Shown here in pieces: positions 26,406 to 32,526 of a stretch of DNA of 33,104 bases. Under the pieces are notes generated by a model. It worked only from the letters and a program-made list of their open reading frames with translations, did not search any database and was not told the DNA's origin. How positions within the stretch are numbered: the stretch's first letter is position 1; the number at the start of each line of letters is the position of its first letter. Made by a program: the position numbers and the translations under genes. Source of the DNA: an uncultured archaeon (GTDB lineage: Archaea; Asgardarchaeota; Thorarchaeia; Thorarchaeales; Thorarchaeaceae); NCBI GenBank assembly GCA_964473825.1, contig CAYYQL010000029.1:1-33104 (forward strand), read 5' to 3'.

Positions 26406-28337
26406 GTGGTGCTCCAAGTGACGAAAGACAAGCTCTGGCTCGGACTGTATCTAGATGAAGAAGGAAAAAGGACGGACAAGAAGTTCGAAATAAGCGTTGA
26501 TCTGCTTAGAAGACATGGCGGAGTCTTCGGGTCTACTGGTTCAGGCAAGACTGTCTTGAGCAAGGCCATCTTGGAAGAGGCTGCGCTCCAAGGCATACCT
26601 GTGATTGCAATGGACCCCCAGGGAGATATCGCGTCGCTCATGATTCCTGGTGACCCAAAAGAGCTCGAAACAAAGGGAGTAGATCCCGCTAGACTCAAAG
26701 AGTATCTCGATAAAGTGATTGTGAGAGTCTATACCCCTGCGAGCAGTAAGGGGCTTGCAATATCAATCAATCCGTTGAAACTACCAGATAAGAATGCAGA
26801 TCCAGATGATATGGTCCGTCTCATGGACAACTCGGCCCGGACCTTGGTGAAGGTTCTTTCAAAGGTAGCAGGCCTATCTAAATCATGGGAGAGCAAGTCG
26901 TTTGCAGTTCTCTACGAGTTGTTGAGAACCACTTGGGAAAAAGACGTGAAGGTCAAGGACCTGGCTGAGCTGGCCAATCTCCTCGTGGCCCCGGTTGACG
27001 AAGTTGGAGTGGACCTTGAACCATACATGAAGCAATCAGAACGCGAGAAACTGGCAACCTCTATTAGAAGTCTGACCGTGGGGTCTTCTCAGTTGCTTTT
27101 CAGAGAAGAAGGACAAATCGATTTCGATGAACTCATCAAACCTGTCAATGGTAAGACACCAATCAACGTTCTCTTTCTGAAGACACTGAGAAGTGAAGAG
27201 GAGAAACATTTCTTCATTGCAATAGTCCTCAACCAGCTCTACTCATGGATGCTGCGACAAGGATTCACAGAGCAGCCCAGACTCGTTCTCTTTCAGGATG
27301 AGGCTGCACCGTTCATTCCGGCAGGAATGAAGTCCCCAGGCCCCAAGGAAACCTTCCTCCTGCTCTTTCGACAGGCAAGGAAATACGGGGTAGAGTGCTT
27401 GGTTGCGACGCAGTCCCCCAAAGACGTTGACTATAAGGCATTCGAGCAGACCTCGCTTATTGCTAGTGGGCGCATCAGCAGTCATCAGTCCCTGAAGGTG
27501 CTTGAGAGGGTTCTAGAACCGATAGCAGGAGAAAAGGGGGCCGAGGAAATCATCAAGCATCTTCCTGCCCAACCGACTGCCTCCTTCATAATCGCATCAG
27601 CAGATATGAAACCGAAGGTGAATCACGTGGGTGTTCGCTGGCTTCTCACGAAACACATCACACTCACAGAACGCGACGTTCAGAAACATATGGTTGAACT
27701 CAAGAAGGACCAAGAGAAGATACTCAGAGAAATGGAGAAACAAAGGCTAGAACGAGAGAAGATAGTGGAAGAAAAACATCGAAAGCTTGCCGATGAGCGT
27801 CGAAAGAAGAAAGAGGAAGAGGAGCGGCTCAAGAGGGAGAAAGCAGAAAGAGAAAGGCAGGAGGCCGCAATGGCTGCGAAGCGCGAGGAATTCGTGTCTG
27901 CACCACCCGACGCCAAGGTCTTCGAAACCAAGGGTAAGCAGAGCCTATCGTATGAAGACATCATCAACGCATTCATTGCCAGAATCGAAGGAATCGCGCG
28001 GACAACCTTTGGGCTCCCGTTCCTGAAGGAACTGGTAAGGCGCGAGCAACTCGTCTATGAGAAGGCCATGTCATTCTATCTGAAAGAAACCAAGGCCGCC
28101 ATCAAGTATGGTCTCGCCAAACGTGTGAAGGGGCCCCACAGAGGTAGGCAGACTTGGCTCATCATGTACGATTTTGATCACGTTCTGGACGAGGTGCTGA
28201 AGTCCACCGGGATCAAGCAACCAGAGTACGTGGACAGGACGCGTCTCAAGAAGCGTTTTGAGGAGCTGGTCAAGAACGCAGAGAAGAACAGCATTCTGGA
28301 GAGAATCGTGCTTGGTGAACCCCTCTTGGATTTCTAG
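26406..28337 (+). CDS. HerA/FtsK-like (DUF87/DUF853-type) ATPase with charged helical stalk and C-terminal domain
   Basis: RH..VFGSTGSGKT Walker A, DPQGD, LFQDEA Walker B and RQARKYGV..LVATQSP.D.D motifs. Confidence 0.88.
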   Translation: MVLQVTKDKLWLGLYLDEEGKRTDKKFEISVDLLRRHGGVFGSTGSGKTVLSKAILEEAALQGIPVIAMDPQGDIASLMIPGDPKELETKGVDPARLKEYLDKVIVRVYTPASSKGLAISINPLKLPDKNADPDDMVRLMDNSARTLVKVLSKVAGLSKSWESKSFAVLYELLRTTWEKDVKVKDLAELANLLVAPVDEVGVDLEPYMKQSEREKLATSIRSLTVGSSQLLFREEGQIDFDELIKPVNGKTPINVLFLKTLRSEEEKHFFIAIVLNQLYSWMLRQGFTEQPRLVLFQDEAAPFIPAGMKSPGPKETFLLLFRQARKYGVECLVATQSPKDVDYKAFEQTSLIASGRISSHQSLKVLERVLEPIAGEKGAEEIIKHLPAQPTASFIIASADMKPKVNHVGVRWLLTKHITLTERDVQKHMVELKKDQEKILREMEKQRLEREKIVEEKHRKLADERRKKKEEEERLKREKAERERQEAAMAAKREEFVSAPPDAKVFETKGKQSLSYEDIINAFIARIEGIARTTFGLPFLKELVRREQLVYEKAMSFYLKETKAAIKYGLAKRVKGPHRGRQTWLIMYDFDHVLDEVLKSTGIKQPEYVDRTRLKKRFEELVKNAEKNSILERIVLGEPLLDF

Positions 28338-29995: not shown

Positions 29996-30514
29996 ATGGG
30001 AGAAGAAGAGACCTACATTCGTGCGAAGCTCACAGAAATCAATACTTCGATTGACCGGCTGACAGACTTGCTCAACAGAATGATAGAAGTCATGACAAAG
30101 ATTACCGACCTTGAGGATTCGACCTCTGAACTGGCGCTGGCGGTAACAGCAAACGGTGAGAAGATAGATGACCTGACACAGATGGTTAAGAAGCTAGGGA
30201 AACAAGCGTCTGTTCCAGCTTCGAGCGGTGCCATCGCGGAAAAGGGAGTAGTCACGGGACTCAGCTCGGTTCTTGATAATCTTGACAGTCAAGTGAGGGA
30301 AGGAATCATAGCCAGCGACTTGGCAACCAAAGTTGATGATGCAGCTGAAACACTTGAACAGAAAGGTGCAAGCAGCTCCCTCGTCGTTAAAATGCAGCGC
30401 TGGGTACGAATTCTCAAGACATATGGACCGGTCGATACCGTCAGTCCAGCAGACCTCGCCAAGCTACGCGGGGATCTGAAGGACTGGCAGAAAGAAATCG
30501 GTCAGATGAGATAA
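29996..30514 (+). CDS. Coiled-coil protein with a Vps28 C-terminal-domain-like helical bundle (tentative)
   Basis: Heptad repeat over aa ~12-67, a low-complexity linker, then an ~88-aa helical domain that aligns by eye with the Vps28 CTD. Confidence 0.55.
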   Translation: MGEEETYIRAKLTEINTSIDRLTDLLNRMIEVMTKITDLEDSTSELALAVTANGEKIDDLTQMVKKLGKQASVPASSGAIAEKGVVTGLSSVLDNLDSQVREGIIASDLATKVDDAAETLEQKGASSSLVVKMQRWVRILKTYGPVDTVSPADLAKLRGDLKDWQKEIGQMR

Positions 30515-31038: not shown

Positions 31039-32526
31039 ATGGATTCTGCAGGCATAGATGTTCCTGAAGGCATGCTTCATAGACTGCACACGGCGGTACG
31101 TGCGGTACAGAACTCTGAGAAGGCTCTAGCATTCTCACATATCGATGCAGATGGAATTACGGCTCTAGCAATTGTGGTGCAACTTCTGCAACGTGAGAGC
31201 ATCCAAACTGAATGGGCCAATATCCACCAGTTGAACTCGGAATCTATCATCGAGGTCAGAGATTCAATCCTCAAAGGAAAACCAGACCTTGTCATATTCA
31301 GCGATTTTGGGACAGGCCAGATGGATTTAATCCGGGAACAAATCTCACCGCTGGAATCTGTAAGAAAGATAGTCGTGCTGGACCATCATCTCCCCAAAAA
31401 GAAATCTGAACAGAACACGTCCAATGGGAAGATTATCGAGGTCAATCCATGCAATCATGGCCTGAGCGGCAGTAAGGATGTTTCAGGTGCAGGAGTTGCA
31501 TTTCTATTGGCGCTGCACACCTCTCTGGAAAACACAGACCTATCAGAGCTGGCGATAGTTGGAGCCTCTGGAGACCTCCAGGATTTCTATGGGAAAGGCT
31601 TCAGGGGGATAAATGCGGACATTATCAGACTAGGCGAGGCGGCAGGATACGTTGCAGTGGATAAGGATCTTACATTCTTTGGGATTAACACCAGACCCCT
31701 CCCCTTCCTGCTTGAGTATGCTACTGAGCCCTATCTGCCTGGGATAACAGGAAACAGGGATGCATGCTATTCCTTCTTTGAGAACCTTAGAATTCAGATG
31801 AAGAATACAGACGACAGCTGGAGAACGTGGAGTGACCTTCAGGATAGTGAGAAGCAGCACGCGATTCAAGCCCTCTTCCACGAGATTCTACAAGCCTATG
31901 ACGACCCAAAGATTGCCAAGGGTATCATTGGAGATGTGATAACACTCACACGTAGGCCGCTTAAGAGTGAGATGAGGAACGTGAAAGAGTTCTCCACACT
32001 TCTGAATGCATGCGGGAGAAACAGAGAACCCGAGGTGGGTGTCCGCATTTGTCTTGGAGATGAAGATGCATATGTACGAGGAAGGACACTGCTTCAGACT
32101 CATAGATCCAATCTTGCCCAAGCTCTGCGAAGAGTAGAGCAACAGGGTTACGATGAGAGGAAGGGAATGTATCTGATAGACGACAACGAAACCCCTGATA
32201 CTATCATTGGCATCGTTATTGGCATGGCCCAAGGAGCTCGTCTTGTCCCTATAGACAAACCGGTGATTGGGGTAAGCAGGAACACCACAGGTGAAGGTCC
32301 GAAGCTGAAGATCTCTGGCAGAGCGAGAGGTTCCTTGATAAAGAGAGGACTCAATTTGAAAGAGGCCTTCGTTGAAGTAGCCGAGATTCTGAATGAACAA
32401 CATGGTAGAACAATAGCAGAAGCAGGAGGTCATCCAATGGCGGCCGGAGCATTTGTGCACAATAAGCATTTGAAAGAGTTCCTCGATATGACCTCGGATA
32501 GACTTGCTGAAATGCTCACCAAGTAG
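31039..32526 (+). CDS. DHH-family phosphoesterase, archaeal RecJ/Cdc45 (GAN)-like
   Basis: SHIDADG, SDFG, LDHH, VSGAG, GASGDLQ, EFSTLLNACGR, KISGR and GGHPMAAG motifs. Confidence 0.92.
   Translation: MDSAGIDVPEGMLHRLHTAVRAVQNSEKALAFSHIDADGITALAIVVQLLQRESIQTEWANIHQLNSESIIEVRDSILKGKPDLVIFSDFGTGQMDLIREQISPLESVRKIVVLDHHLPKKKSEQNTSNGKIIEVNPCNHGLSGSKDVSGAGVAFLLALHTSLENTDLSELAIVGASGDLQDFYGKGFRGINADIIRLGEAAGYVAVDKDLTFFGINTRPLPFLLEYATEPYLPGITGNRDACYSFFENLRIQMKNTDDSWRTWSDLQDSEKQHAIQALFHEILQAYDDPKIAKGIIGDVITLTRRPLKSEMRNVKEFSTLLNACGRNREPEVGVRICLGDEDAYVRGRTLLQTHRSNLAQALRRVEQQGYDERKGMYLIDDNETPDTIIGIVIGMAQGARLVPIDKPVIGVSRNTTGEGPKLKISGRARGSLIKRGLNLKEAFVEVAEILNEQHGRTIAEAGGHPMAAGAFVHNKHLKEFLDMTSDRLAEMLTK

Follow-up and report, generated by a model that had tools for sequence, protein, structure and literature searches.

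A 172-residue protein of Thorarchaeota, here called family A, ends in a four-helix bundle that profile comparison identifies as distantly homologous to the C-terminal domain of Vps28 (Vps28-C) and begins with a long coiled coil. We give a probability of roughly 0.6 to the reading that this protein forms a soluble, probably trimeric rod whose Vps28-C-type heads, held on flexible tethers, bridge membrane-trafficking partners, which would give it a role in membrane remodelling. The features of the family A locus in the window, meaning the whole stretch of 33,104 nucleotides that was analysed, are listed in Table 1 together with the three paralogues encoded elsewhere in the source genome.

Table 1. 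Features of the family A locus and its paralogues (positions are those of the window unless a contig, C, or locus, L, is given).
Feature	Position	Strand	Basis or remark
Gene for 172-aa coiled-coil plus Vps28-C-like protein (family A)	29996..30514	+	ORF, homologue and family-profile searches
N-terminal helix, aa 3-70	30002..30205	+	AlphaFold model; parallel in-register homotrimeric coiled coil in complex model
Asn53, polar core layer of coil, 99% conserved	30152..30154	+	Conservation; 53-53 contact in trimer model
Flexible linker, aa 71-80, poorly conserved	30206..30235	+	pLDDT<50
Four-helix bundle homologous to Vps28 C-terminal domain, aa 83-172	30242..30511	+	Profiles and structure searches
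Family-specific conserved basic stretch, helix 3: K132, R135, R138, K/R141, Y143, around invariant W136	30389..30430	+	Conservation
G159-D160-L161-K162, aligned to F-D-L-E of Vps28 (human F206/D207/E209)	30470..30481	+	Only Asp conserved
Downstream 112-aa protein, one C-terminal hydrophobic segment	30635..30973	+	Usual, non-obligate neighbour
Paralogue B, 248 aa	C38:14372-15115 (L035:6373-7119)		
Paralogue C, 338 aa	C37:8080-9093		
Paralogue D, 299 aa	C4:33440-34336 (L037:7438-8337)		

The peptides quoted in the sequence-only reading lie inside this open reading frame, which its 216 homologues at E<=0.001 mark as a real gene; the named homologues are nearly all from Thorarchaeota, and the best 120 of the 216 share 54-97% full-length identity. 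Among the matches listed, none of the homologues carries a Pfam domain. The family A profile matched 79 of the 85 genomes of the source organism's own family and the sole genome of its sister family, and essentially nothing in the rest of the phylum; a search for longer fused versions found none, which is weak evidence. No transmembrane segment was found in the 172-aa protein. A sigma-70 promoter scan scored at chance level, the sigma-70 model being unsuited to archaea. The fold, homology, architecture and distribution of family A are established in this way and by the comparisons below.

We modelled the bundle by itself (pLDDT 94.6) and searched 48,161 chains with VIA, which placed yeast Vps28-C first (Z 11.5, rmsd 2.5, 90 residues aligned; next match 10.1), although Z values under about 13 are common among helical bundles. 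Foldseek also placed Vps28-C at the top with both the bundle-only model (E 0.16) and the full-length model (E 0.22), neither value being significant, and Vps28-C stood in row 2 of the Atlas search. With the full-length model, VIA gave Vps28-C a Z of 11.9, tied with a CheA HPt domain at Z 11.4. By itself, the structural match makes Vps28-C probable, yet for a helical bundle it is weak evidence and could reflect a common arrangement.

We therefore rely on profile comparison, which decides where structural margins alone do not. A profile of Vps28-C built from canonical Asgard Vps28 loci matches Xenopus 2J9W at 1.9e-13 and yeast Vps28-C at 2e-7, and hhalign aligned the family A profile to it with a probability of 85 (E 6e-6, 83 columns), compared to less than 1 for reversed-profile controls. 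Among 127 alignment segments taken from the loci, only Vps28 itself and the bundles of family A and paralogue C exceeded a probability of 8, and segments of unrelated neighbour families reached at most 3. A pan-Asgard bundle profile raised the probability to 95.9 (E 6e-9), which stayed at 90 after removal of fusion proteins, and one wider relative exceeds the Pfam VPS28 cut-off. Searches of Pfam, PDB sequences and family profiles gave no direct match to eukaryotic Vps28. These comparisons indicate that the family A bundle is a distant homologue of Vps28-C, as the sequence-only reading had proposed by eye for residues ~85-170. The register that it proposed without gaps between Trp136 and the Asp-Leu motif was recovered by hhalign through a chain of alignments to Xenopus and yeast Vps28-C; in helix 1, different profile pairs place the register four residues apart, which leaves residue matches in that helix uncertain. 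That reading had also proposed as checks the Pfam VPS28 profile, which gave no hit to the protein, and AlphaFold with Foldseek, which returned Vps28-C first with the same topology.

The tie with CheA and a bundle identity to Vps28-C of only 11-14% are what would be expected of a convergent four-helix bundle, HPt-like or generic, sitting on a structural coil and without kinship to Vps28. This is very improbable and largely refuted by profile matches that span the full domain with clean reversed and decoy controls, and by a search of 27,789 six-frame ORFs with the canonical Vps28-C profile, which put A, B and C first, with weak and partly coil-driven E-values. An HPt domain was rejected because the phospho-accepting His is not conserved (in any one column, at most 28 of 106 members have a His).

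Homology to the domain does not make family A a Vps28 orthologue. The Pfam PF03997 cut-off was reached by neither the 172-aa protein nor any of 106 family A members, and canonical Asgard Vps28 (100/95) and family A (100/98) formed separate groups in a tree of only 95 columns with unresolved deep forks. Binding of CHMP6 requires F206, D207 and E209 of human VPS28 (PMC4772496); at the aligned positions of family A, residue 159 is variable, D160 is 99% conserved and residue 162 is Lys or Arg. The conserved positions cluster instead at two sites, the basic helix-3 residues and the opening 30 residues of the coil; residue 145, an Arg in 95% of family A, is Pro in this protein. Lacking a Pfam match and a steadiness box, placed in its own clade and with a degenerate F-D-x-E motif, family A is a diverged carrier of Vps28-C. 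The role of ESCRT adaptor suggested for it is putative: of the CHMP6-binding residues only the Asp is kept, and gene context offers no link to ESCRT.

AlphaFold places helices at residues 3-70, 77-102, 106-122, 127-141 and 151-171. The first takes the place of the steadiness-box hairpin, which is absent from family A, and the N-terminus compares to Asgard Vps28 N-termini with a probability of 0.27. The sequence-only reading was thus right that a coil and linker replace the Vps28 N-terminal hairpin, and too short in its length for the coil (~55 residues, against ~68). When three copies of residues 1-72 were modelled together, the complex scored 0.68 compared to 0.01 for the best control, with runs sharing at least 92% of contacts at a pLDDT of at least 86. 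Of 30 solved homo-pairs, 20 attained the score mark used, compared to 1 of 23 single chains, figures that transfer only approximately to a trimer. For coiled coils such a prediction is easy to pass, perhaps through likeness to solved trimers. The modelled homotrimer supports self-association of the coil, in line with the self-oligomerising stalk suggested earlier, and leaves its stoichiometry unfixed. Outer-face residues 6-30 are nearly invariant across family A.

The polar Asn53 core layer, together with weak matches to Syntaxin (E 0.086) and Synaptobrevin (E 0.8), could also describe a SNARE-like protein working with the downstream tail-anchored protein. We consider this barely credible, as a Pfam search with 106 members of family A placed no SNARE-motif family in its top 25, family A has no membrane anchor, and the tail-anchored gene, found next to the family A gene in 62 of 68 loci, is missing in the other 6. 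SNARE identity was rejected for want of a SNARE motif and a C-terminal membrane anchor, and SNARE-like genes are reported absent from Thorarchaeia (10.64898/2026.10.19.760048).

The conserved gene order runs HAD hydrolase, cupin, family A, tail-anchored protein, RecJ-type nuclease. The tail-anchored gene can be missing from it, whereas the nuclease is retained in 60 of 62 loci and the cupin in 67 of 69. The arrangement looks like ordinary synteny without a functional lead; the cupin, HAD hydrolase and nuclease have no trafficking link. The 112-aa tail-anchored protein has several conserved Trp residues, and neither a family match nor an Atlas match was found for it. The conserved downstream nuclease (31039-32526) is of the DHH/DHHA1 RecJ type with a CID domain (GAN/Cdc45-like), and positions 26406-28337 encode an ATPase of the HerA/DUF87 type that has a charged coil and whose C-terminal region is unannotated.

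We then compared family A with the ESCRT machinery of its host, which encodes ESCRT-II, ESCRT-III and Vps4. The ESCRT locus lies on contig C10, placing the family A gene outside any ESCRT cluster as first noted, and comprises genes for Vps22 carrying an N-terminal hairpin, Vps25, Vps4, ESCRT-III and a zinc-ribbon/PH/steadiness-box protein but none of the four paralogues; a second ESCRT-III gene lies on contig C4. A 778-aa ORF outside the locus (G000:C4:133438-135771) has a Vps22-like end region (BLAST 5.5e-19 to Vps22). No ubiquitin domain was found in the 96%-complete genome, which supports the possible ubiquitin independence raised earlier, and absence of ubiquitin from Thorarchaeota is also published (PMC9192718). 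A canonical profile search of 87 Thorarchaeota-order genomes (24 of high quality) gave no convincing match to canonical Vps28-C, three of the four weak matches being paralogue C. Weak PF03997 matches occur in 27 of the 85 family genomes; those inspected were rejected as canonical Vps28, each proving to be noise, the Vps22 hairpin or an all-helical protein of 425 aa. The 425-aa protein (G000:C37:10006-11283; L036:8504-9781) is encoded two genes upstream of paralogue C, and its Thorarchaeota orthologues give weak full-length PF03997 matches, with E down to 1e-5, that are possibly compositional.

These absences, with the Vps28-N hairpin joined to Vps22 in Thorarchaeota while ESCRT-II, ESCRT-III and Vps4 are present, would suit a split ESCRT-I in which family A or its paralogues supply the Vps28-C head and recruit ESCRT-II/III without ubiquitin. 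We regard this as doubtful. Lineages with canonical Vps28 also carry coil-plus-bundle proteins, and such proteins therefore did not arise as replacements; moreover, the F-D-x-E motif of family A is degenerate, it has no steadiness box for joining the headpiece, and all four paralogues lie away from the ESCRT locus. For family A itself, direct binding to ESCRT-II/III is likewise rather unlikely, and binding to another trafficking protein is a possibility we hold tentatively.

Paralogues B, C and D share the coil and C-terminal bundle with family A (hhalign 93-96 to A) and differ from it in their longer stalks and, in D, a winged-helix-like insert. They were found in 80, 77 and 56 of the 85 family genomes, respectively. 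Families A, B and C are thus each present in about 90% of genomes, nearly always as a single copy, and this pattern, together with homologous coils in A and B (probability 94.5) and nearly invariant outer coil residues, could reflect a hetero-oligomeric rod in which A, B and C each contribute a different head to a stalk like that of ESCRT-I. We think this unlikely, since the genes are dispersed, each inside its own conserved neighbourhood, and A by itself models as a confident homotrimer. Paralogue B is flanked by two Ras/Rab-like GTPase genes with a CBS protein adjoining. Downstream of paralogue C and co-oriented with it, L036:1693-5601 encodes a protein of 1302 aa that has a winged helix of the TrmB type at its N-terminus and also contains apolipoprotein-like repeats. 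Paralogue D groups with proteins from other Asgard lineages (L187, L202, L216 and L221).

The co-occurrence check across Asgard genomes showed relatives to be widespread, a joint bundle profile of the paralogues matching 227 of 400 genomes. In 15 genomes inspected, none of the matches was canonical Vps28; the majority were coil-plus-bundle proteins of ~190-420 aa, and some were Arf-like GTPase fusions or long proteins. Two (L185:1462-2643 and L192:577-1710) combine a Longin-like domain, an Arf-like GTPase and a Vps28-C-like bundle in a single chain, and small GTPase genes adjoin several other relatives. In three Asgard genomes (L199, L206 and L214), a coil-plus-Vps28-C-like gene interrupts a ribosomal protein operon.

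Evidence on the partner of family A comes entirely from these relatives. In the soluble rod that we favour, the N-terminal helices would zip copies together in parallel, most simply as the modelled homotrimer, and the flexible linker would free one Vps28-C-type bundle per chain at one end of the rod, allowing multivalent binding. The conservation of the outer face at residues 6-30 suggests that it may bind a second partner or a paralogue. The diverged bundle would itself bind via a family-specific, probably basic, surface, and the fusions and neighbours of its relatives point to an Asgard trafficking network of small GTPases, coat-like proteins and ESCRT proteins as the setting.

The question addressed is how ESCRT-III is recruited in Thorarchaeota without ubiquitin, UEV-Vps23 or Vps28. 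In the Thorarchaeota genomes examined, Vps28-C-type domains were detected only in family A and its three paralogues; these proteins are easy candidates to test because they are near-universal in the lineage, small and soluble. A bolder proposal, which we consider improbable, is that Thorarchaeota re-partitioned ESCRT-I, with the hairpin on Vps22 and trimeric (possibly A/B/C) rods whose Vps28-C heads recruit ESCRT-II/III, perhaps under GTPase control; coil-plus-Vps28-C proteins would then represent an ancestral class of Asgard adaptors out of which Vps28 itself was assembled. As it stands, the finding extends the described repertoire of Vps28-C domains and leaves the picture of that repertoire unchanged.

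The sequence-only reading had called the protein unrecognised, which prior work contradicts at the level of the class: Makarova et al. 2024 (PMC10936438) describe Asgard Vps28-C fusions that include a Thorarchaeota helical-plus-Vps28-C protein, and report that some Asgard encode Vps28-C separately, that many multidomain proteins carry it fused, and that these could reach ESCRT-II without core ESCRT-I. Their Table S3 gives the Thorarchaeota protein as KXH73277.1 (~235 aa, helical N-terminus, Vps28-C at 155-235, HHpred 84), which by size may be paralogue B. In SMTZ1-45, paralogues B and C are KXH71483.1 and KXH70935.1; family A in SMTZ-45/SMTZ1-45 is KXH74182.1/KXH72234.1, accessions not found in the supplementary tables of that paper as available to us.

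Compared to Vps28-C of ESCRT-I (C-half of PF03997; PDB 2J9U, 2J9V, 2J9W and 2G3K), family A shares a four-helix bundle of equal size and topology, its C-terminal position on a flexible tether, the conserved Trp in helix 3 and the Asp-Leu in helix 4. It differs from Vps28 in having a long self-associating coil instead of the steadiness box, in having lost the F206 and E209 equivalents, and in its low identity and position in a clade apart from Asgard Vps28. With the Asgard Vps28-C accessory proteins (PMC10936438; Liu et al., 10.1101/2020.10.19.343400), it shares the reuse of Vps28-C outside canonical Vps28, and it has their features of a Vps28-C on a non-Vps28 N-terminus and a host with ESCRT-II, ESCRT-III and Vps4. 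Where Makarova et al. call the N-terminus BAR-like and the Vps28-C families patchy (PMC10936438), the N-terminus of family A models as a parallel trimeric coil, and A, B and C occur almost throughout Thorarchaeota.
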